Source of the DNA: Candidatus Sungiibacteriota bacterium
GTDB lineage: Bacteria > Patescibacteriota > Minisyncoccia > Sungbacterales > HO2-52-23
NCBI GenBank assembly: GCA_016180435.1
Contig: JACPBG010000003.1
Span: 77,791-141,790, forward strand
Direction of reading: 5' to 3'
DNA length: 64,000 nucleotides
The translations under genes and the position numbers were made by a program. Shown here in pieces: positions 2,917 to 63,642 of the stretch. Within the stretch, counting starts at the first letter, position 1. The number at the start of each line of letters is the position of its first letter. The notes under the pieces were generated by a model. The model did not search any database, had not been told where the DNA came from, and saw only the letters and a list, made by a program, of their open reading frames with translations.

Positions 2917-2984
2917 TTTTACGAAATACGGATCAGTACGAATGTACGAATTCGTAAATTCGTAAAAATTCGTATTTCGTAAAG
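2917..2984. repeat. Family A element
   Basis: ttttacgaaatacggatcagtacgaatgtacgaattcgtaaattcgtaaaaattcgtatttcgtaaag, followed by tc + ATG of rpsU. Confidence 0.8.
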
Positions 2985-19906: not shown

Positions 19907-19985
19907 ATCAACGAATAACGAATCTTATTCGAATTTACGAATAAACAAGTTCGTATATTCGTAAGCCATTCGTTATTCGCTGATG
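19907..19985. repeat. Family A' ('cgaataacgaat' subfamily) element
   Basis: atcaacgaataacgaatcttattcgaatttacgaataaacaagttcgtatattcgtaagccattcgttattcgctgatg; it includes the pepA stop TAA. Confidence 0.7.
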
Positions 19986-21526
19986 AAATGCGGATATTCT
20001 TTCGCCAGTTCCACAATATATCGTACTCCTGTTCCCGCTGCGCCTTTGCCTAAGTAGTCCGCCTCAACCGCAGTCATGCGCGGCGCAATATCTATGTGGG
20101 CAAAGTGAGTTTCGCCGGCAAATTGTTCCAGAAATTTTGCTCCATGTGTTGCTCCGCCGTATTTGTCTTTGGCGCCGATATTGGCAAGATCGCCGAATGT
20201 GCCTTTGATTTCCGGAAGAAATTCATCCCATAAGGGCAGAGGCCAGACATAGTCCCCGGATTTTTTTCCAACATCAATCATTGCGCGTTCGAGTGATTCA
20301 TCCCCGTCTTTGGTGAAAAGCGCGGAGCAGTGGCTTCCGAGCGCCACATGCGCGGCTCCGGTAAGCGTGGCAAAATTCACCATAAGCCCTGGTTTATACT
20401 TTGTTGCTCCGTAATAAAGCGCATCCGCCAAAATTACGCGTCCCTCGGCGTCAGTATTCAAGACCTCAATGGTTTTTCCGGACATGGTTTTAAGAAGATC
20501 TCCCGGATGATAACTCGAACCCGACGGCATATTTTCTACGGCGGGAATAAGGCCCACGACATTTATTGGGAGTTTGAGCCGTGCGACTGCAGCCATTCCG
20601 TGAATCACTGCCGCACCTCCGGACATATCCATGTGCATTTCATATATATAGTCGGATGGTTTCAAGTTAAGCCCCCCGGTGTCAAAGGTGACACCTTTTC
20701 CGGTAAGAACCAGGGGTTTTTGCTCTTGGGGACCATGAAAATATTCTAAAATTATAAATTGCGGCTTTTCTGAAGATCCGCGCGCAACTCCAAGCACTCC
20801 GCCCATGTTAAGCCGTTGCATGTCTTTTTCATTGAGAATTTTTACGAGAATCCCGTATTTTTTAGCGGTTTGCACCGCTTCATCGGCAAGGCGTTTTGGC
20901 GTCATATCGCCACCCGGAGTATTGGCAAGCGCGCGGCAGGAATTTACCTCCTCTCCGATAATCATGCCATCCCGAATTCCGTCTCTCGCTGATTTAAATG
21001 CGTCTTTCGGCGCCGTCCACTCCGATTGCGATCGGAGCGAGGCTCGCCCCTCGTGGGCGGCAAGATTTACTGTTCTTATTTCCGGCCAGCCGGTTTTGGG
21101 CCTTTCTTTATATTTATTGAATTCAAAATCAGCCATTAGCGCATTGGTCGTGAATAACGAAGCGTCTCTTCGAGCATCGTCGGAAGAAGACGGAAGTTCT
21201 GCGGCAAACTCTTTTATGCGCTCTGATTTTGCGTATCGTGTAAACATGCGTGCAAGCAAGTGTTCTTTGCGGTAGTTCCATTTGGATTTATCGCCAAGTC
21301 CGAAAAGCCGGACGCGTTTTATATTGCCCTTGGGAAACCAAATTGATTTTGTTTCTCCGGCCTCGCCCATGAATTCTTCTTTGGCAAGTTTCCGTACGGC
21401 TGTTTGCACTGATTTTGGCAAATACGAAAAAAGCTCGGCACTTTCGATCCTTTGTTTTTCAAACAGGGCAAAGAAGATATTCGGGGAGCGCGCCGCGGAT
21501 TTATATGTGACAGGAATTATTTTCAC
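19973..21526 (-). CDS. pepA: Leucyl aminopeptidase (M17)
   Basis: NTDAEGRVILADAL M17 signature; GTG start directly abutting a family B end. Confidence 0.85.
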   Translation of the reverse strand: MKIIPVTYKSAARSPNIFFALFEKQRIESAELFSYLPKSVQTAVRKLAKEEFMGEAGETKSIWFPKGNIKRVRLFGLGDKSKWNYRKEHLLARMFTRYAKSERIKEFAAELPSSSDDARRDASLFTTNALMADFEFNKYKERPKTGWPEIRTVNLAAHEGRASLRSQSEWTAPKDAFKSARDGIRDGMIIGEEVNSCRALANTPGGDMTPKRLADEAVQTAKKYGILVKILNEKDMQRLNMGGVLGVARGSSEKPQFIILEYFHGPQEQKPLVLTGKGVTFDTGGLNLKPSDYIYEMHMDMSGGAAVIHGMAAVARLKLPINVVGLIPAVENMPSGSSYHPGDLLKTMSGKTIEVLNTDAEGRVILADALYYGATKYKPGLMVNFATLTGAAHVALGSHCSALFTKDGDESLERAMIDVGKKSGDYVWPLPLWDEFLPEIKGTFGDLANIGAKDKYGGATHGAKFLEQFAGETHFAHIDIAPRMTAVEADYLGKGAAGTGVRYIVELAKEYPHFISE

Positions 21527-21530
21527 GGGT

Positions 21531-21639
21531 GTGATGCCAATCTACAAATCTAATGCCAATATAGCGAATTGCGAATCGATTTATGTATAAGCATTCGCAA
21601 TTTGTAGATTAGCATTAAATTCGCATCGGATTGGCATCA
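21531..21639. repeat. Family B element
   Basis: gtgatgccaatctacaaatctaatgccaatatagcgaattgcgaat...gcattaaattcgcatcggattggcatca. One end gives the TGA of rpmB; the other abuts the GTG of pepA. Confidence 0.8.
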
Positions 21640-21852
21640 TTGCTGGTGTAGTTTTTTTAAACACTTCACGCAAATTTTTGCGCGTTTCCCGGCCACCTGT
21701 GGCGAGTCTCGCCCTGCGGTGCGGGATTCTAATCTAGCCCATTGTAAATTGGGGTATTTTCTTATGGTTTTTGCTGGGTTATAATGGCTGCGGAGGAAAG
21801 CGCGTTTACCGGCAATAGAGGATCCTTTGTGGCAAAGAAAACAAGTTTTCAT
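21637..21852 (-). CDS. rpmB: 50S ribosomal protein L28
   Basis: CFLCHKGSSIAGKRAFLRSHYNPAKTIRKYPNLQ resembles L28 (C.vtGKR...SHa.NaTKRrf.PNLq). Confidence 0.7.
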   Translation of the reverse strand: MKTCFLCHKGSSIAGKRAFLRSHYNPAKTIRKYPNLQWARLESRTAGRDSPQVAGKRAKICVKCLKKLHQQ

Positions 21853-22383
21853 GTCTTTACGAAATACGAATAGTTACGAATTTACGAATAATGTGCTATT
21901 TTATGTTTACTATACGTTTGAAATGGACATTTCGTGGCGCAAAATACGCAAGTATGCCCAATTTTAGTCCGCCCACCACGAGATATTGATATACTTGCTC
22001 GATGTGATTTTTCACGAATCTATCACCTTTTTTGATCTCTAATATTATCTTATCTTCAATTAGAAAATCCAGGAAGTTACTGCCGATTCGTTCATTCTGA
22101 TACTTGATGGGAAAATACGCTTGTTCTCGAAATTTTAATCCCGCATTTTTTAATGCAATCGCTACTGCGCGTTGATATACTTTTTCGCTGTTGCCAAATC
22201 CCAATTTATTGTATACGTCAAACAATATGCCTATTATTTGATAACTTAACTCCGGGTATACGAGATCTTCTCGTTTAAGCATGTGTCCCGCGTCCATTTT
22301 ATGAGATTATCATGGTTCGGAGATTTTTACAATAGTTAAGCGAGGATTCGTACATTCGTATTTAATTCGTATTTCGTAAAGAA
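21853..22383 (-). mobile_element. Putative autonomous family A element: TIR + GxxExxY/PD-(D/E)xK nuclease gene + TIR
   Basis: Left TIR tttacgaaatacgaatagttacgaatttacgaataat; right TIR (reverse complement) ctttacgaaatacgaattaaatacgaatgtacgaat; 133-aa nuclease ORF 21896..22297 in between. Confidence 0.6.
21896..22297 (-). CDS. GxxExxY-type PD-(D/E)xK nuclease-like protein
   Basis: GNSEKVY (G-x-x-E-x-x-Y) and ...FLDFLIEDKIILEIKKGD (D ... E-x-K). Paralog of 26509..26907. Confidence 0.7.
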   Translation of the reverse strand: MDAGHMLKREDLVYPELSYQIIGILFDVYNKLGFGNSEKVYQRAVAIALKNAGLKFREQAYFPIKYQNERIGSNFLDFLIEDKIILEIKKGDRFVKNHIEQVYQYLVVGGLKLGILAYFAPRNVHFKRIVNIK

Positions 22384-22384
22384 C

Positions 22385-23029
22385 ATGGAAAACGTGATAG
22401 AACCATTTTTTTATATCGCGGTTTTGATTTTTTCCGTAGTGATACACGAGGTATCGCACGGTTTTGTGGCGCTGGCTTTGGGGGACAGAACCGCCAAATA
22501 CGCCGGGAGATTAACTTTAAATCCAATTCCGCATCTTGATCTTTTTGGATCAATTCTTCTGCCCGCCCTGCTCATTATTACGCAAAGTCCGTTTTTGATA
22601 GGTTGGGCCAAGCCGGTTCCGTATAACCCGTATAATTTGCGGAATAAGCGGTGGGGTCCGGCCTGGGTTGGCGCGGCGGGACCCTTGGCGAATCTTTCGC
22701 TTTCTTTGGTTTTCGGGCTGGCAATCCGATTTTTACCGTCAACTCTTGGTATTTTCCCCGGCGCATTTCTTATGAATTTTATGTCCATCGCAAGCTCTAT
22801 TGTATTCATCAACGTTATGCTCGCTGTTTTTAATTTGGTGCCGATTCCGCCGCTGGACGGATCAAAAGTCCTCTTCTCTGTATTACCGTATCAATGGCGC
22901 GGGGTGGAGGCATTTCTGGAGCAATACGGATTTATGATCCTGCTATTTTTTATATTTTTCTTTTCGCACTGGCTATTACCCATTGTTCTATTACTCTTTC
23001 GTTTGATTACCGGAGGATATCCGTTTTAA
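22385..23029 (+). CDS. M50-family (site-2 protease-like) zinc metallopeptidase
   Basis: HEVSHG (HExxH) in a TM helix; GWAKPVPYNP motif; polytopic membrane protein. Confidence 0.75.
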   Translation: MENVIEPFFYIAVLIFSVVIHEVSHGFVALALGDRTAKYAGRLTLNPIPHLDLFGSILLPALLIITQSPFLIGWAKPVPYNPYNLRNKRWGPAWVGAAGPLANLSLSLVFGLAIRFLPSTLGIFPGAFLMNFMSIASSIVFINVMLAVFNLVPIPPLDGSKVLFSVLPYQWRGVEAFLEQYGFMILLFFIFFFSHWLLPIVLLLFRLITGGYPF

Positions 23030-25911: not shown

Positions 25912-25994
25912 TTTTACGAAATACTAATCATTACGAATATACGGATTATTTGAAGACGTATTCGTAAATTCGTACTCATTCGTATTTCGTAAAG
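25912..25994. repeat. Family A element
   Basis: ttttacgaaatactaatcattacgaatatacgg...attcgtaaattcgtactcattcgtatttcgtaaag, then atc + ATG of rpsG. Confidence 0.8.
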
Positions 25995-26465: not shown

Positions 26466-26938
26466 AATTACTACGAAGGTACGAATTTTTACGAACGTAC
26501 GAATAATTATGCGGGAAATAAAAAAGAAAGATTTATTATATCCTGATTTAAGCTATCAAGTGGTTGGTATTTTATTTGAAGTATTTAATGAACTCGGTTA
26601 TCAGTATCAGGAAAAATATTACCAAAGAGCGATCAGCAAAAGTTTGCATCTGGTAGGCATTCCTTTTCAGGAACAAATTATTTTTCCAATAGAATTTAAG
26701 GGTCAGAAGATTGGCCGGTATATCTTTGATTTTTTAGTTGATAATAAAATTGTTTTAGAAATAAAACGTGGTGACACTTTTTCACCTCAAGATATCCGAC
26801 AAACGATCGCCTACTTAAAAAGATCAAATTTACGACTAGGAATCCTTGCTCGTTTTTCAAGCAAGGGTCTTAAGTTCAAAAGAATAGTAAATATAATTGA
26901 TTCGTAATTTTCGTATTTATTCGTAACTTCGTAGTAAA
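26466..26938 (+). mobile_element. Putative autonomous family A-type element (TIR-nuclease-TIR) inserted between rpsG and fusA
   Basis: Left attactacgaaggtacgaatttttacgaacgtacgaataatt; right (reverse complement) tttactacgaagttacgaataaatacgaaaattacgaatc. The nuclease ORF stop lies inside the right TIR; the fusA ATG follows immediately. Confidence 0.6.
26509..26907 (+). CDS. GxxExxY-type PD-(D/E)xK nuclease-like protein
   Basis: YQYQEKYYQRA (GxxExxY region) and IFDFLVDNKIVLEIKRGD (D ... E-x-K). Paralog of 21896..22297. Confidence 0.7.
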   Translation: MREIKKKDLLYPDLSYQVVGILFEVFNELGYQYQEKYYQRAISKSLHLVGIPFQEQIIFPIEFKGQKIGRYIFDFLVDNKIVLEIKRGDTFSPQDIRQTIAYLKRSNLRLGILARFSSKGLKFKRIVNIIDS

Positions 26939-29071
26939 ATGCCAAGAGAATATCCTTTAGAGAGTACCAGAGATATCGGCATTATTGCCCATATTGATGC
27001 CGGAAAAACGACCGTAACCGAGCGGGTGCTTTTTTATACCGGCGTATCGCATAAAATCGGCGAGGTGCATGAGGGCGATACGGTGATGGATTGGATGGAG
27101 CAAGAGCGCGAAAGGGGAATTACTATTACGGCGGCCGCAACGAATGTGTTTTGGGTGCCGACGCATGTCGGAGAACTTAGAACTGAGAACTTAGAACTTA
27201 GAAAAAAGAACGAATACAGAATAAATATCATAGATACTCCGGGACATATTGATTTTACCGTGGAGGTTCAGCGCTCACTTCGGGTATTGGATGGCGCGGT
27301 GGTGGTTTTTGACGGAGTGGCCGGAGTTGAGCCGCAATCCGAAACCGTCTGGCGCCAAGCCGATAAATTTAAAGTTCCGCGCATGTGTTTTATAAATAAG
27401 CTTGACCGCATGGGCGCGTCATTTGAGCGCTCGCTCAATTCCATTTATGAGCGACTAACCCCGAATGCGGTTTCGGTGGCAATACCCATAGGACACGAAC
27501 AGGAACACGAAGGCGTGATTGACCTTATGCGCATGAAGTCCGTGAAGTTTCTGGGAGATAAAGGAGAAAAACTTGAATTTGTTGAGATACCCGAGAATTT
27601 GAAATCCTATGCCGAGGAATGGCGCCATAAAATGGTTGAAAAAATTTCGGAAACGGATGACGCGCTTACGGATAAATATCTGGAAGGCAAAGAGATGACT
27701 GTCGAGGAACTGCGTGGCGCTTTACGCCGCGCGACCATTGGATATCGGCTGGTTCCGGTATTTTGCGGATCGGCGCTTAAAAATAAAGGCGTGCAGTTGA
27801 TGCTGGACGGTGTGGTTGATTATCTGCCCTCTCCTTTGGATATGCCGCCGGTAAAAGGAACTCATCCCAAAACCGGTGCGGAAGAAATTCGCGAAGCGAA
27901 AGATGATGCGCCATTTGCCGCGCTTGCTTTTAAATTGCAAACCGATCCTTATGTGGGACAACTTACATATTTTAGGGTTTATTCGGGCATGCTTAAAGCC
28001 GGATCTTATGTTTTAAATTCGGTAAATGGAGATCAGGAGAGGGTGGGGCGGATTTTGCGCATGCATGCCAATACCCGCGAGGAACTGAAAGAAATCGGCG
28101 CCGGAAATATCGGTGCGATTGTCGGTCTTAAAAATACCCGTACCGGAGATACGCTTTGCGATCCGGAGCATCCGGTTGTGCTTGAAAAAATCGTATTTCC
28201 CGAGCCGGTGGTATCTTTGAAAATTGAGCCCAAGACCAAGGCTGACCAGGAAAAAATGGGACTGGCCCTGCGGCGTCTGGGCGAGGAGGACCCGACATTT
28301 CGCATTAAAGGCGACATTGAGACCGGTGATACCATTATTTCGGGTATGGGTGAACTTCATTTGGAAATTATTGTGGATCGCATGAAGCGCGAATTTTCCG
28401 TGGAGGCCAATGTGGGCCGGCCGCAGGTGGCTTATAAAGAAACCATTAAAAAAACCGCGGAAGCGGAAGGAAAATATATTCGTCAATCAGGCGGACGCGG
28501 ACAGTACGGACATGCGTGGCTTCGGGTTGAGCCGCGCGAGCGCGGAAAGGGATTTGAATTTCTTGACGAGATCAAAGGCGGTATAATTCCGCAAGAATAC
28601 ATTCCGGCGATTGAAAAAGGGATTAAGGAGGCCATGGAAAAAGGTGTTTTGGCGGGGTACCCACTGGTTGATATGGCGGTCGCGGTTTATGACGGATCAT
28701 ATCATGAAGTGGATTCGTCCGAGGCCGCATTCAAAATCGCGGGTTCCATGGCTTTGCAGGAGTGCGTTAAGCGCGCGGGACTTGTGCTGCTTGAGCCGAT
28801 TATGAAAGTGGAGGTTGTGACTCCGGAGCAGTTTCTGGGCGAGGTTACCGGGGATTTGAATTCCAAGCGTGCGCGGATTGAAGAAATGTCCGAGCGCGGC
28901 CTGGGAATTAAGGTGATTGACTGCAAAGTTCCGCTTTCGGAAATGTTCGGATATGTTACGACTCTTCGTTCCTTGACGCAAGGCAGAGCCAGTTTTACTA
29001 TGGAATTTGATCACTACGAGGAAGTCCCGAATAATATTGCGCAGCTTATAATTGAAGGGAAGCGGCAGTGA
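26939..29071 (+). CDS. fusA: Elongation factor G
   Basis: [23 protein letters not shown] and all five EF-G domains. Contains a family F-encoded insertion ([15 protein letters not shown]) between G2 and G3. Confidence 0.95.
27172..27212. repeat. Family F heptad-repeat half-element, in-frame inside fusA
   Basis: gagaacttagaactgagaacttagaacttagaaaaaagaac. Confidence 0.7.
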
Positions 29072-35251: not shown

Positions 35252-35257
35252 AACAAT

Positions 35258-35372
35258 AGATTACCACAGATTAATATACAGATTATCACAGATCACAGAT
35301 TTACGTCGTAACGTATTTTTTATCATCTGTGATCGGTGTATATCTGTGAGATATCTGTGAAAATCTGTTGGT
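35258..35372. repeat. Family H ('cacagat/atctgtg') palindromic element
   Basis: gattaccacagattaatatacagattatcacagatcacagat ... catctgtgatcggtgtatatctgtgagatatctgtgaaaatctgttgg. Confidence 0.8.
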
Positions 35373-36587: not shown

Positions 36588-36684
36588 TGCCAATCCAATG
36601 CGAATTTAATGCCAATCTGGCGAATTGCGAATACGTTATCATTAGCAATTTGTAGATTAGCATAAGATTTGTAGATTGGCATCA
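36581..36684. repeat. Family B element
   Basis: gcagtgatgccaatccaatgcgaatttaatgccaatctggcgaattgcgaat...gcataagatttgtagattggcatca. Confidence 0.8.
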
Positions 36685-37533: not shown

Positions 37534-37652
37534 CCACAGATTATCACAGATTTCACTACAGATTGCCACAGATCACAGATAAGATTTCATTCTTCCGTTC
37601 CATCATCTGTGATCTGTGGACATCTGTGTAGCATCTGTGCGCATCTGTTGGA
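37534..37652. repeat. Family H element
   Basis: ccacagattatcacagatttcactacagattgccacagatcacagat ... catctgtgatctgtggacatctgtgtagcatctgtgcgcatctgttgg. Confidence 0.8.
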
Positions 37653-37655
37653 ATT

Positions 37656-38641: not shown

Positions 38642-38725
<84 letters not shown>

Positions 38726-39920: not shown

Positions 39921-40020
39921 ACCCTGTACACAAATCCACAAATGAGCACACAAATCCACAAATGGAATAAGTATTCGTGATTCGTGGATTGGTGTAAACA
40001 TTCGTTGATTAGTGTGTTTT
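39921..40020. repeat. Family C element
   Basis: accctgtacacaaatccacaaatgagcacacaaatccacaaatgg...cgtgattcgtggattggtgtaaacattcgttgattagtgtgtttt, then ATG. Confidence 0.8.
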
Positions 40021-40200: not shown

Positions 40201-40202
40201 TA

Positions 40203-40303
40203 TCAACGAATAACGAATCTTGCGCGAATTTACGAATAAACGAATTTATGGTGAGTAGAGTCGAACCATTCGTATATTCGTAATAAATTCGTTATTCGAT
40301 GAT
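40203..40303. repeat. Family A' element
   Basis: atcaacgaataacgaatcttgcgcgaatttacgaataaacgaattt...ccattcgtatattcgtaataaattcgttattcgatgat. Confidence 0.75.
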
Positions 40304-40317
40304 AGAGCGAAGCGATC

Positions 40318-42453: not shown

Positions 42454-42538
42454 CTTTACGAAATACGAATCATTACGAATGTACGAATACATTTTATCAG
42501 ATTATTCGTAAATTCGTATATATTAGTATTTCGTAAAG
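42454..42538. repeat. Family A element
   Basis: ctttacgaaatacgaatcattacgaatgtacgaatac...attcgtaaattcgtatatattagtatttcgtaaag. Confidence 0.8.
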
Positions 42539-44239: not shown

Positions 44240-44326
44240 ATTTTACGAAATACGAATCATTACAAATATACGAATACGTTTTGGTAAGTTGATTCGTAAA
44301 TTCGTACCTATTCGTATTTCGTAAAG
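44240..44326. repeat. Family A element
   Basis: ttttacgaaatacgaatcattacaaatatacgaatacgttttggtaagttgattcgtaaattcgtacctattcgtatttcgtaaag. Confidence 0.85.
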
Positions 44327-44829: not shown

Positions 44830-44916
44830 ATTTTACGAAATACGAATCATTACAAATATACGAATACGTTTTGGTAAGTTGATTCGTAAATTCGTACCTA
44901 TTCGTATTTCGTAAAG
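44830..44916. repeat. Family A element; near-identical duplicate of 44240-44326 including the left flank ttaattgat
   Basis: Same sequence as the previous copy. Confidence 0.85.
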
Positions 44917-48857: not shown

Positions 48858-48889
48858 TTGTTTGGTGAATTGTGTGTTATTATTATGAG

Positions 48890-48985
48890 GTAGATGCAAT
48901 ATTAAACGCCACTGTTACGCAAAATTAGACGCAAATTGCGTTTAGATATTGCGTAAATTAGTTTGCGTTTGAAGTTGCTTCTAAA
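48890..48985. repeat. Family K ('acgcaaa/ttgcgt') iteron element
   Basis: ttacgcaaaattagacgcaaattgcgtttagatattgcgtaaattagtttgcgtttgaag. Confidence 0.5.
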
Positions 48986-48987
48986 AT

Positions 48988-49377: not shown

Positions 49378-49461
49378 TTTACACGAATTTGGTCACGAAT
49401 TTCACGAATTACGTAAATTTATTCGTGATATCTGTGTTCAAATTTGTGAATATTCGCGAAA
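49378..49461. repeat. Family J ('cacgaatt/attcgtg') iteron element
   Basis: ttacacgaatttggtcacgaatttcacgaattacgtaaatttattcgtgatatctgtgttcaaatttgtgaatattcgcg. Confidence 0.5.
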
Positions 49462-51589: not shown

Positions 51590-51595
51590 GTTGAT

Positions 51596-51680
51596 TTTAC
51601 GAAATACGAATCATTACGAATGTACGAATATGGCATGGCAAATTAATTCGTAAATTCGTATATATTCGTATTTCGTAAAG
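51596..51680. repeat. Family A element
   Basis: ttttacgaaatacgaatcattacgaatgtacgaatatggc...attaattcgtaaattcgtatatattcgtatttcgtaaag, then at + ATG of tpiA. Confidence 0.8.
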
Positions 51681-56543: not shown

Positions 56544-56576
56544 CAAAAACCCGCGTAGGCGGATTTTTGTTATCCT

Positions 56577-56600
56577 TGATGCATCTATAAGCCGAATTCT
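56577..56600. terminator. Bidirectional hairpin terminator (rnhA on plus, rnpB on minus)
   Basis: aaaaacccgcgtaggcggatttttg. Confidence 0.6.
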
Positions 56601-56603
56601 GTT

Positions 56604-57093
56604 CCGCATTTTTTTATATTTTTGCGGAGATGATCATTTATCTAGGCCAAAGATTTCTCATTTGGCTCAAGCGGATTTTCCGCAATTGCGGATTACCTTG
56701 CACCGGATAGGAGTTTTTCACCGCGTATTGTTGCCAGTACGCGCTGTGAGCTTTTACTTTTACCTCGCCGAAGCGAAGCTTATCCCGCGCGAAGGCGGGC
56801 TCACTCTTTTCACCCTTACCTCCTCCACCATAAAAACCTTTAGAGTTTTTTTGATGACGATCGGCGGTATTGTTTCTGTGACACTTTCCCGGTCATGGCG
56901 GCCGTTAGCCGCTATCTCTAACGCTGCATAGCAGCGTAGAACTTAGAACCAAGATCTTAGAACTTAGAAAAACGACTAAGATCTAAGTTCTAATACTCTA
57001 AGTTCTGCGTTGCTATGCAACGCTGGTGTTCGGACTTTCCTCCCCCCAGTAATGTTTTGCATTAATGGGAGCGATCATCCAATGCATCAAGGT
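56604..57093 (-). ncRNA. rnpB: RNase P RNA (bacterial type), interrupted by a family F palindromic insertion
   Basis: Minus strand shows ggaggaaagtccgaacacc (P4 5' strand), gtcacagaaac, ggtaagggtgaaaagagtgagcc, ggtgcaaggtaatccgc, gcttgagccaaatgag...ggcctagataaatgatc...gcggaacagaattcggcttatagatg (E. coli M1-like 3' third). P1 pairs ccttgatgcat/atgcatcaagg. Confidence 0.75.
56935..57004. repeat. Family F palindromic element inserted inside rnpB
   Basis: tagaacttagaaccaagatcttagaacttagaaaaacgactaagatctaagttctaatactctaagttct, flanked by hairpins acgctgcatagcagcgt and gcgttgctatgcaacgc. Confidence 0.75.
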
Positions 57094-62639: not shown

Positions 62640-63527
62640 ATGATTCGAAGAAACATTTTTGAAGAAACAGAGCGTCTTTCAGTACTTCGTATTCTTATCG
62701 AAACGTATGAGGGCATTGCCGCCATGACCATACGCCGAATTCGAAATTCAGTTCTGCAAAACCGCGAATTTTATGCCGGCCTGTCTGATCTTTTTGCCGA
62801 AATAAAATCAGCTTACGCAAAAGATCTGCGCTCCCTTATGGTCAAGCGGGGAATAAAACAGGCGTTGGCCGACGGAGCTAAAGCCAAATCTTTATCGCTG
62901 ATCCGGAGAAACGGCAAAACCGTTTATGTCCTGCTTTCGTCTAACACCGGACTTTACGGGGAAATTATCGGCAAGACATTCGCTTTATTTGTTAAGAACA
63001 TCCGCTGGAGCGATGCGGATTGCGTGATAGTCGGCAGGGTGGGCAGGATGTTATTTGAATCCGCCATGCCGCAAAAGAAATTTTCGTATTTTGATTTTCC
63101 CGACACCCATGTTTCGCGCGCCGATTTGGAGGAAATTACAAAATTTCTCCATCAGTATGAGAATGTCGTGGTATTTCACGGAGCATTTCGCAGTTTTATT
63201 GATCAGCATCCGGCATTATCGCGTGTTTCGGGGGACGAGCGTCTGTTGGGGGAAGAGGCTTCGGGGTCGGTGTCCTACATCTTTGAGCCATCGCTTGAGG
63301 ATATAATGGTTTTTTTCGAAAGTGAGATTTTTGCATCGCTTCTGGGGCAGGTTTTTTATGAGTCGCGTCTTGCTAAAGTGGCAAGCCGTTTAATGGTACT
63401 TGATCGCGCATCCACAAATGTTGATGATGCCTTGCGCCGCTCGTTTTTTAAGCAGCGTCAAGCCGGACATCAGCTTTCCAATAAAAAGCAGATAAATGCC
63501 ATGAGCGGCGTAGCTCTTTGGGGGTAA
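62640..63527 (+). CDS. atpG: F-type ATP synthase subunit gamma
   Basis: Position and size; N- and C-terminal coiled-coil helices. Confidence 0.75.
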   Translation: MIRRNIFEETERLSVLRILIETYEGIAAMTIRRIRNSVLQNREFYAGLSDLFAEIKSAYAKDLRSLMVKRGIKQALADGAKAKSLSLIRRNGKTVYVLLSSNTGLYGEIIGKTFALFVKNIRWSDADCVIVGRVGRMLFESAMPQKKFSYFDFPDTHVSRADLEEITKFLHQYENVVVFHGAFRSFIDQHPALSRVSGDERLLGEEASGSVSYIFEPSLEDIMVFFESEIFASLLGQVFYESRLAKVASRLMVLDRASTNVDDALRRSFFKQRQAGHQLSNKKQINAMSGVALWG

Positions 63528-63615
63528 CATCAGCGAATAACGAATCCTTCGCGAATTTACGAATACTGGAATTCGTAATTCGTATATTCGTACGAGATTC
63601 GTTATTCGACGATGT
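63528..63615. repeat. Family A' element
   Basis: catcagcgaataacgaatccttcgcgaatttacgaatactggaattcgtaattcgtatattcgtacgagattcgttattcgacgatg. Confidence 0.75.
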
Positions 63616-63642
63616 TTTACCGTTATTCGTTGATAAATTTAA

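Follow-up and report, generated by a model that had tools for sequence, protein, structure and literature searches.

A GxxExxY nuclease gene between inverted heptamer-array arms: a probable selfish cassette in the rpmB-M50 spacer of a Sungbacterial genome

A 527-nt cassette, in which a small nuclease gene is bracketed by two inverted arms, lies between divergent rpmB and M50 protease genes at positions 21855-22381 of the window, by which is meant the whole 64,000-nt stretch of Candidatus Sungiibacteriota contig JACPBG010000003.1 (positions 77,791 to 141,790; assembly GCA_016180435.1). We interpret it as one resident copy of a nuclease cassette of ~0.5 kb that is selfish and spreads horizontally, has derivatives resembling MITEs (miniature inverted-repeat transposable elements) and is tolerated by the host through folding of its arms (probability about 0.55). 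The components of this reading differ in strength: it is very likely that the cassette is real, conserved, and selfish, with functional arms, and the odds that the nuclease is itself the mobilising enzyme are roughly even or slightly worse. The arm-open reading frame (ORF)-arm arrangement is read directly from the sequence, with the following features:

21637..21852, minus strand: rpmB (L28-like) host gene, 71 amino acids (aa), co-oriented with the nuclease ORF
21855..21889, minus strand: R-type (downstream) arm, four ATTCGTA units on the ORF strand; arm profile 41 bits
21896..22297, minus strand: GxxExxY / PDDEXK_3 nuclease ORF, 133 aa, or 128 aa from Met6
22283..22345, minus strand: inner non-coding leader from arm to ORF start, with Met1 at 22297 or Met6 at 22282
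22346..22381, minus strand: L-type (upstream) arm, as read on the ORF strand, four TACGAAT units; arm profile 35 bits
22385..23029, plus strand: site-2/M50 protease host gene, divergent from rpmB

The left arm (21855-21889) reads CTTTACGAAATACGAATAGTTACGAATTTACGAAT and the right arm (22346-22381) reads ATTCGTACATTCGTATTTAATTCGTATTTCGTAAAG. Both are ~35 nt long, inverted, and composed of four TACGAAT heptamers apiece, and the perfect inverted repeat comprises the outer 18 nt (21854-21871 / 22365-22382). An earlier sequence-only reading had proposed that a second copy of a nuclease gene between terminal inverted repeats (TIRs) occupies this divergent spacer, with outer ends 2-4 nt from start codons, and both the sequence and the profile matches bear this out: the rpmB-like ORF starts 2 nt from the outer end of the left arm, and the ATG of the M50 gene lies 3 nt ('aac') from that of the right arm. 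The L28 match of the rpmB-like ORF is weak (20 bits, under the Pfam cut-off), as it is for the orthologue in the related genome L051. In public assemblies the nuclease is called from Met6 (128 aa, 21896..22282), and the leader (22283..22345) is poorly conserved relative to the orthologous cassette in L060. The M50-ORF-rpmB order is reproduced on independent Logan contigs from other runs, so the arrangement is not an assembly artefact; the 128-aa form was found on six short Logan contigs, each ending at repeats, which makes strain-level polymorphism unreadable from them.

Comparison of the rpmB-M50 spacer among Sungbacteria identifies the window copy as an insertion, since the spacer is empty, otherwise filled, or occupied by the same cassette in relatives (identities are to the M50 protein of the window):

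L196, M50 89% identical: spacer of 62 nt, no arms
L045-L050, M50 88% identical: ~110-nt decayed GCGAAT-type palindrome in the spacer, no ORF
L192, M50 86% identical: ORF-less CACGAAT-type palindrome in the spacer
L051 (complete genome CP066690.1), M50 71% identical: spacer of 23 nt, no arms
L054, M50 70% identical: spacer of 24 nt, no arms
L060/L061, M50 70% identical: same cassette in the same orientation, each end 3-4 nt away from an ATG; nuclease identity 72%

A short, ORF-less copy between rpsL and rpsG is likewise present in L045 and not in L051, where the stop and start codons are 2 nt apart. The presence/absence polymorphism by which TIR transposons and MITEs are recognised is thus found at two spacers, rpmB-M50 and rpsL-rpsG, each empty in some genomes and occupied in others. 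Together with the cross-phylum distribution of the nuclease described below, these comparisons show gain, loss, replacement, and horizontal transfer.

The window holds one further full cassette, seven ORF-less palindromes with the same arms (family A), and palindromes of a second family (B):

26466..26937, plus strand: paralogous cassette between rpsG and fusA; arms at 26468-26504 and 26900-26937, ORF at 26509..26907
2917..2984, plus strand: ORF-less family A palindrome, with rpsU as the downstream gene
25912..25994, plus strand: ORF-less family A palindrome between rpsL and rpsG, conserved in L045 and absent in L051
34542..34624, plus strand: ORF-less family A palindrome upstream of rplC
42454..42538, plus strand: ORF-less family A palindrome upstream of rpsH
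44241..44326, plus strand: ORF-less family A palindrome upstream of rpsE; the copy at 44831 matches it at 100% identity
44831..44916, plus strand: ORF-less family A palindrome upstream of rplO
51595..51680, plus strand: ORF-less family A palindrome upstream of tpiA
19907..19984, unstranded: family B palindrome (ATCAACGAAT-AACGAAT-...-TACGAAT), with further copies at 40201-40304 and 63526-63616

The nucleases of the two cassettes had been described as paralogues of ~45% identity; the paralogy holds, with an identity of 50% over 126 aa, and the rpsG-fusA copy is the sole paralogue found by tblastn of the window. When the two nucleases are compared together with their arms, the architecture is the same and the arms differ mainly in the outermost unit. 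The ORF-less family A palindromes (68-86 nt, loops of 0-16 nt) are defined by matches to the terminal 16-mer TTCGTATTTCGTAAAG. At up to 3 mismatches the window contains 17 occurrences of this 16-mer, where 1.3 are expected and none of 100 shuffles gives as many. Each of these palindromes fills an entire spacer, from the upstream stop codon to 2-9 nt before the next ATG. Alignment of 18 arms gives a fixed plan, (C/T)TT-TACGAA-A-TACGAAT-N3-TACGAAT-N-TACGAAT, with consistent spacer differences between left and right arms. The arms of the rpmB-M50 cassette align position by position with those of the short copies and of the second cassette, and the order on the ORF strand (L-type arm, ORF, R-type arm, downstream ATG) is that of the short copies and of the rpsG-fusA cassette, in agreement with the shared geometry that had been claimed. 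In all nine family A copies the element points the same way as the gene downstream of it. This holds for the rpmB-M50 cassette too, which is on the opposite strand while the sign of the GC skew is unchanged; on this single case, element orientation follows transcription rather than replication. ORF-less copies (families A and B) and ORF-bearing cassettes have their TIRs in common, and the family B palindromes (19907, 40201, and 63526) match arms that flank GxxExxY genes in the loci L009, L018, and L022.

The two identical copies that flank rpsE (44241-44326 and 44831-44916) agree even in the loop and in the 4 nt (TTGA) to their left, and the two 92-nt spacers around rpsE differ in the last base only. 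This identity points to a recent duplication or gene conversion.

The same arrangement recurs in distant genomes. When one genome per GTDB species was scanned with both paralogues as queries, 37 loci were obtained, 34 of them full-length, from Doudna-, Yanofsky-, Moran-, Komeili-, and Paceibacteria, Saccharibacteria, and Bacteroidota. For 29 of the 34 full-length homologues (42-65% identity), an inverted repeat spans the gene within the 150 nt on either side (z of 5-21 against shuffles), and on inspection these repeats are arrays of about four TAC(G/T)AA(N) units adjoining the start and stop of the ORF. With a profile built from the arms of the window, a plus and a minus arm bracket the ORF in most loci, and some loci contain extra short palindromes. 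In at least half of the cassettes a co-directional gene starts within 15 nt of the distal arm, and many begin a few nt past a stop codon. The heptamer variant (TACGAAT, TACTAAT, AACGAAT, TACGAAC/G, or TACGAAA) follows the protein clade across the 37 cassettes, so that the co-evolving element lineages proposed from the two copies of the window generalise, with the proviso that linkage alone would give the same correlation. Distant homologues (29-36% identity) have arms or an adjacent hairpin made of other repeats, namely CGCAGAA (L184), CACGAA (L183), GGATT (L190), and CGCGGAT (L191), and one (L189) has direct repeats instead of inverted arms.

The nearest relatives of the nuclease (72-76% identity) lie amid unrelated genes in Bacteroidetes, Omnitrophota, and Parcubacteria. 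In one of these loci (L056) the ORF-distal arm is nearly identical to the R arm of the window and the upstream (L) arm retains two of four units; in another close homologue (L059) both arms are present. Copies from the Candidate Phyla Radiation (CPR) and from Bacteroidota interleave in a neighbour-joining tree of the nucleases. An identity of 72-76% across phyla, compared with 50% for the paralogue in the same genome, points to horizontal spread. Plasmids yielded only three distant homologues by tblastn. A metagenome scan with a 15-mer arm end gave at least 120 matching stretches, of which 80 loci were analysed: 66 were chance matches and 14 were real, mostly short palindromes or solo arms, with one full cassette, a yield too small for a census. 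The solo TACGAAT arms, or half-elements, are exemplified by metagenome contigs L125 (5300-5420), L072 (8440-8684), and L079 (10035-10068); those of L072 and L125 are embedded in arrays of another unit (TTGTTCA/TTGTTTA).

The order rpsG-GxxExxY-fusA recurs in three other phylum-level groups (L013, L020, and L038), and the rpsG-fusA junction (26466-26937 in the window) is a recurrent landing site, with GxxExxY cassettes in four lineages. In one relative this junction contains a different palindrome, of TCCGAAAT units, and in another a string of small ORFs (DUF5678, Asp_protease_2-like); the junction coordinates in relatives are L045 5975-6119 and L054 4755-6013. In L051 (CP066690.1, 5650-6035) the end of rpsG seems partly duplicated (a second '...KAFAHFAW*') and is followed by a long, G+C-rich, structured spacer before fusA.

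The protein encoded by the cassette is a confident member of the GxxExxY/PD-(D/E)xK nuclease family to which the sequence-only reading had assigned it. The ORF matches PF13366 PDDEXK_3 (E 3e-30, 105.3 bits against a cut-off of 22, profile positions 2-116 of 117) and TIGR04256 GxxExxY (E 1e-29, 103.3 bits against a cut-off of 35, profile positions 1-116 of 116). The GxxExxY motif is present as G30-N-S-E33-K-V-Y36, and residues E33, Y36, D72, E82, K84, Q96, and Y100, which are invariant among 56 homologues, are intact. The predicted structure (predicted local distance difference test score, pLDDT, 92) has a restriction-endonuclease-like alpha/beta fold, a minimal PD-(D/E)xK, and the folds closest to the model are Cas4, a restriction-endonuclease domain, and Hjc. 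Because its close homologues are all about 125-140 aa long, the ORF is a complete stand-alone protein, and not a fragment of a larger host gene. The family is large, with 16,984 clusters at 50% identity matching at E up to 1e-3. Tandem two-domain fusions of ~265 aa account for about 25 of the 150 top-ranking representatives (e.g., P0252, P0260, P0264, and P0266); since such fusions make up about one-sixth of the best representatives, they suggest that the working unit may be a dimer.

Searches for a more specific role gave little. A phmmer search of PDB sequences with the nuclease returned nothing below E 0.9. PADLOC and PHROGs scans of the ORF gave marginal matches only, the best PADLOC match being Cas4b (E 6e-4, 18 bits), and no cas or other partner gene lies nearby in the window; the ORF is therefore not a recognised defence or phage gene. 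Recognised transposase classes (DDE, HUH, serine, or tyrosine) are not represented, the sole ORF of the cassette matching PDDEXK_3 alone. PDDEXK_3 was listed as of unknown function in a 2012 survey of the superfamily (PMC3424549), and Pfam lists it in the same way. Full-text search of an incomplete literature collection found no paper on the biology of GxxExxY, PDDEXK_3, PF13366, or TIGR04256, and nothing relevant on CPR palindromic repeats; the GxxExxY arm cassette was not found described in the searchable literature, whose incomplete coverage makes an earlier description possible.

Both the arms and the ORF are conserved over a long divergence. Between the window and L060 cassettes pN (nonsynonymous) is 0.16 and pS (synonymous) is 0.86, which is saturated, with 47% identity at third codon positions; over the same divergence 8 of 8 heptamer cores and the CTTT termini are unchanged. 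This comparison of two sequences shows purifying selection on the heptamer cores and the ORF alike. Among 28 arm pairs, unit positions are 96% identical to the reverse complement of the partner, against 94% predicted from conservation alone. The N3 and N1 spacers of these pairs are complementary at 28% of positions (31% expected), and deviations within units affect one arm only in 27 cases and both arms in 8. The lack of spacer complementarity and the mostly one-armed deviations thus give no compensatory signal, so that it is the TACGAA sequence, and not pairing, that is conserved. This suggests that a protein may read the arm sequence, rather than an RNA stem alone being maintained. The outermost 3 nt do co-vary between the two paired arms (34 of 54, a value attained in none of 2000 shuffles, where 21 are expected), in an arm set that was gathered with a profile from the arms of the window and is therefore biased toward consensus, and between-arm covariation is limited to the 3-5 nt outside the first unit. 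The palindromes have strong predicted RNA folds (z of -3.7 to -7.9), and the arms close the predicted fold of short and long copies, including a fold of 546 nt; this hairpin potential follows from conserved sites being placed in inverted orientation. The constant mismatched spacers may simply prevent the DNA from being a perfect palindrome.

The arms correspond to no recognised regulatory feature in the scans performed. An Rfam scan of the window at gathering thresholds returned only RNase P and two tRNAs, with the arms covered by no known RNA family. Promoter-like sites in a promoter/terminator scan of 21500-22600 are fewer than in shuffles, with none within the arms, and an outward-promoter role for the arms is consequently unsupported. 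In the sequence and in the same scan, neither a promoter nor a ribosome-binding site belonging to the nuclease ORF is visible.

The cassette resembles three kinds of known element, and fails a defining feature of each. One comprises REP (repetitive extragenic palindromic) sequences and their hairpin-forming doublets (REPINs) with REP-associated tyrosine transposases (RAYTs), reportedly treated by Nunvar in 2010 and by Bertels and Rainey in 2011. As in REPIN-RAYT systems, there are many short intergenic palindromes, the gene for the presumed mobilising enzyme is flanked by inverted repeats, and repeat and enzyme lineages go together; the enzyme gene of REPIN-RAYT systems is single-copy. RAYTs, however, are HUH/Y1 enzymes (IS200/IS605-like), whereas the flanked gene here encodes a PD-(D/E)xK nuclease, and REPs are short G+C-rich hairpins, whereas the arms here are A+T-rich arrays of four heptamers.

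The second kind is the bacterial MITE, found near or inside genes as Correia/NEMIS, ERIC, and Rickettsia palindromic elements (PMC3184786). Like the ORF-less elements of the window, these are TIR elements of 70-160 nt that lie between or within genes, are co-transcribed, and can fold, and related unit repeats of the window also stand in frame in fusA and within RNase P RNA. Known MITEs derive from DDE-type insertion sequences and generate target-site duplications, in contrast to the elements here, which have no duplication and whose sole associated gene encodes a 130-aa nuclease.

The third kind is the 23S rRNA intervening sequence (IVS) with an S23p ORF, known from Leptospira, Coxiella, and others, and long suspected of being a kind of mobile element or the relic of one (PMC4990558). 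It shares with the cassette a size of ~0.4-0.5 kb, TIRs that form a long stem around one small ORF, and tandem heptamers (GACAGAT in the Coxiella IVS arm; PMC4990558). The IVS sits within a highly transcribed essential gene, where removal of the stem from the RNA makes it tolerable; the cassette would be comparable through its predicted stem. Unlike the IVS, the cassette occupies mRNA operon spacers and not rRNA helices 25/45, its ORF encodes a PD-(D/E)xK nuclease and not the four-helix-bundle S23p, and its arms are four TACGAAT units. Other candidates fit less well. An integron attC cassette is rejected by the presence of arms on both sides of the ORF and the absence of an R-box and an integrase. 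Compared with PD-(D/E)xK homing endonucleases and minimal nucleases of the Cas4 / Hjc type, the protein has no sequence-level membership, no Fe-S cluster domain, and no intron, intein, or CRISPR context.

For the selfish cassette favoured here, the following mechanism is proposed. The ORF would be expressed by read-through, co-transcribed with the gene at which it points (rpmB in this case). The nuclease, probably as a dimer, would read the heptamer arrays of both arms, a role assigned to it because it is the sole component always inherited with them. It would then make DNA breaks, after which host repair or ligation would copy or move the cassette, and the ORF-less, MITE-like copies would be mobilised in trans by the same nuclease breaks. 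Excision by Hjc-like cruciform resolution is rejected by reasoning, since it would yield hairpin-capped breaks and not excision. In the transcript, the paired arms would form three successive stems of 16, 7, and 7 bp, the first two separated by a 3x3 internal loop and the last two by a 1x1 loop, with the insert looped out; RNase III may perhaps remove the looped-out insert, by analogy with 23S rRNA intervening sequences. We propose that such folding allows survival of insertions that exactly fill the stop-to-start or start-to-start spacers of essential, tightly packed operons.

Several observations weigh against this reading. No direct repeat of the kind left by target-site duplication surrounds any of the nine family A copies, and TTGA stands on the left side only in three of the nine. 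The two ORF-bearing copies are old (50% identity), with no sign of recent full-cassette movement in the genome, and seven palindromes with matching arms are still ORF-less beside an apparently active nuclease. The L060 cassette at the same site is consistent with long vertical residence under purifying selection, and such residence suits a domesticated function, or one of use to the host, no less than a selfish one. The binding of the protein to the heptamers is deduced from co-inheritance only, and the consensus bias of the arm set bears on the covariation. Moreover, we know of no stand-alone 130-aa PD-(D/E)xK protein that carries out transposition.

The alternative that survives best, although we consider it unlikely, is homing: the ORF-less palindromes would be primary, spreading by other means, and the GxxExxY gene would parasitise them, cutting their centre and being copied into the loop by gene conversion via the ~35-nt arms. 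PD-(D/E)xK homing endonucleases exist (e.g., I-Ssp6803I), and homing would account for an ORF that is invariably placed exactly in the loop, within a type of palindrome also found without one, with the L/R arm asymmetry and orientation preserved. A patchy distribution with cross-phylum similarity, and a protein too small for an obvious strand-transfer function, are also in its favour. Yet seven of eight A-type palindromes of the same genome are empty despite matching arms, and homing provides no account of how palindromes reach new spacers or why, in close relatives, a given spacer has palindromes of one unit family replaced by those of another. Nor, once the homing site had been disrupted, would the arms of an occupied site need to stay conserved over a saturating divergence.

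Somewhat less probable still is that the palindromes are cis-regulatory RNA hairpins of the host (REP-like or RNase III sites, serving mRNA processing or stability), with the nuclease ORF an incidental passenger in two of them. The concentration of copies in ribosomal-protein operons, directly before start codons and oriented strictly with transcription, would be as expected, as would the strong predicted folds, and RNase III excision of ORF-bearing hairpins from 23S rRNA provides a precedent (PMC4990558). However, the heptamers are conserved across phyla without compensatory changes, and the inter-unit spacers are never complementary. The elements are also absent or replaced at orthologous spacers of close relatives, the same arms stand beside GxxExxY genes in non-ribosomal contexts in Bacteroidota and elsewhere, and distant nuclease lineages have different heptamers.

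That an ordinary host paralogue, a housekeeping or defence nuclease, lies by coincidence between two independent palindromes is highly improbable: palindromes do occupy nearly every operon spacer, rpsC and rpsE are also bracketed by two separate ones, and the protein is weakly similar to Cas4 models, but here there is one half-palindrome per side, the halves forming a single palindrome whose loop contains the ORF, 29 of 34 unrelated genomes show the same arrangement, and defence-system models matched no better than E ~1e-3.

If the selfish-cassette reading is extended to the whole family, GxxExxY (PF13366) might be the catalytic component of an unrecognised class of prokaryotic mobile element, in which each lineage would read its own heptamer (TACGAAT, CGCAGAA, CGCGGAT, or others) and would mobilise its own ~0.5-kb cassette as well as swarms of ORF-less hairpins into spacers ahead of start codons; we advance this as a tentative proposal that may well prove wrong. 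Under it, both the S23p-bearing rRNA intervening sequences and the many families of heptamer-array palindromes in the ribosomal operons of this genome would belong to one super-class of 'ORF-in-a-hairpin' elements. The link to the arms gives PF13366/TIGR04256 a concrete biochemical hypothesis, namely which DNA or RNA is bound and cut, and if each nuclease lineage does read its own heptamer, sequence readers that look programmable could be drawn from the family. The cassette also suggests a possible origin for the very dense palindromes of reduced Patescibacteria genomes, connects to the old puzzle of ORF-bearing rRNA intervening sequences, and indicates that essential ribosomal genes can have selfish DNA living 2-3 nt from their start codons.

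The remaining palindromes of the window form a dense and diverse background. In the ribosomal-protein super-operon (25400-52000), nearly every spacer contains a palindrome of 70-160 nt with 3-5 repeats of a 6-7-nt unit; examples of spacer palindromes are 21520-21640, 35252-35367, 36588-36675, 37534-37655, 38644-38711, 39921-40011, 48858-48987, and 49378-49461. At least nine unit families are present, including TGCCAAT/GCGAAT, AGAACTT, CACAGAT, CACAAAT, CACGAAT, ACGCAAA, and TTCTAAT, and some spacer palindromes contain a second, nested palindrome. The family G palindromes (35252-35367 and 37534-37655) have CACAGAT units that resemble the GACAGAT heptamers of the Coxiella IVS arm (PMC4990558). 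By this resemblance they may be ORF-less relatives of S23p-type elements; no pairing of a family G palindrome with an S23p ORF was found among the loci examined.

Palindrome units also occur inside genes. In fusA (27170-27205), AGAACTT repeats are in frame within elongation factor G (EF-G) and encode 12 residues, and the EF-G loop that contains them differs in sequence and length in L045, L051, and L054. It looks as though palindrome units had been inserted into the coding sequence, in the manner of Rickettsia palindromic elements. The RNase P RNA gene (56572-57090, minus strand) is 519 nt long, compared with 367 nt for the model, and has an AGAACTT-type palindrome inside it at 56922-57022.

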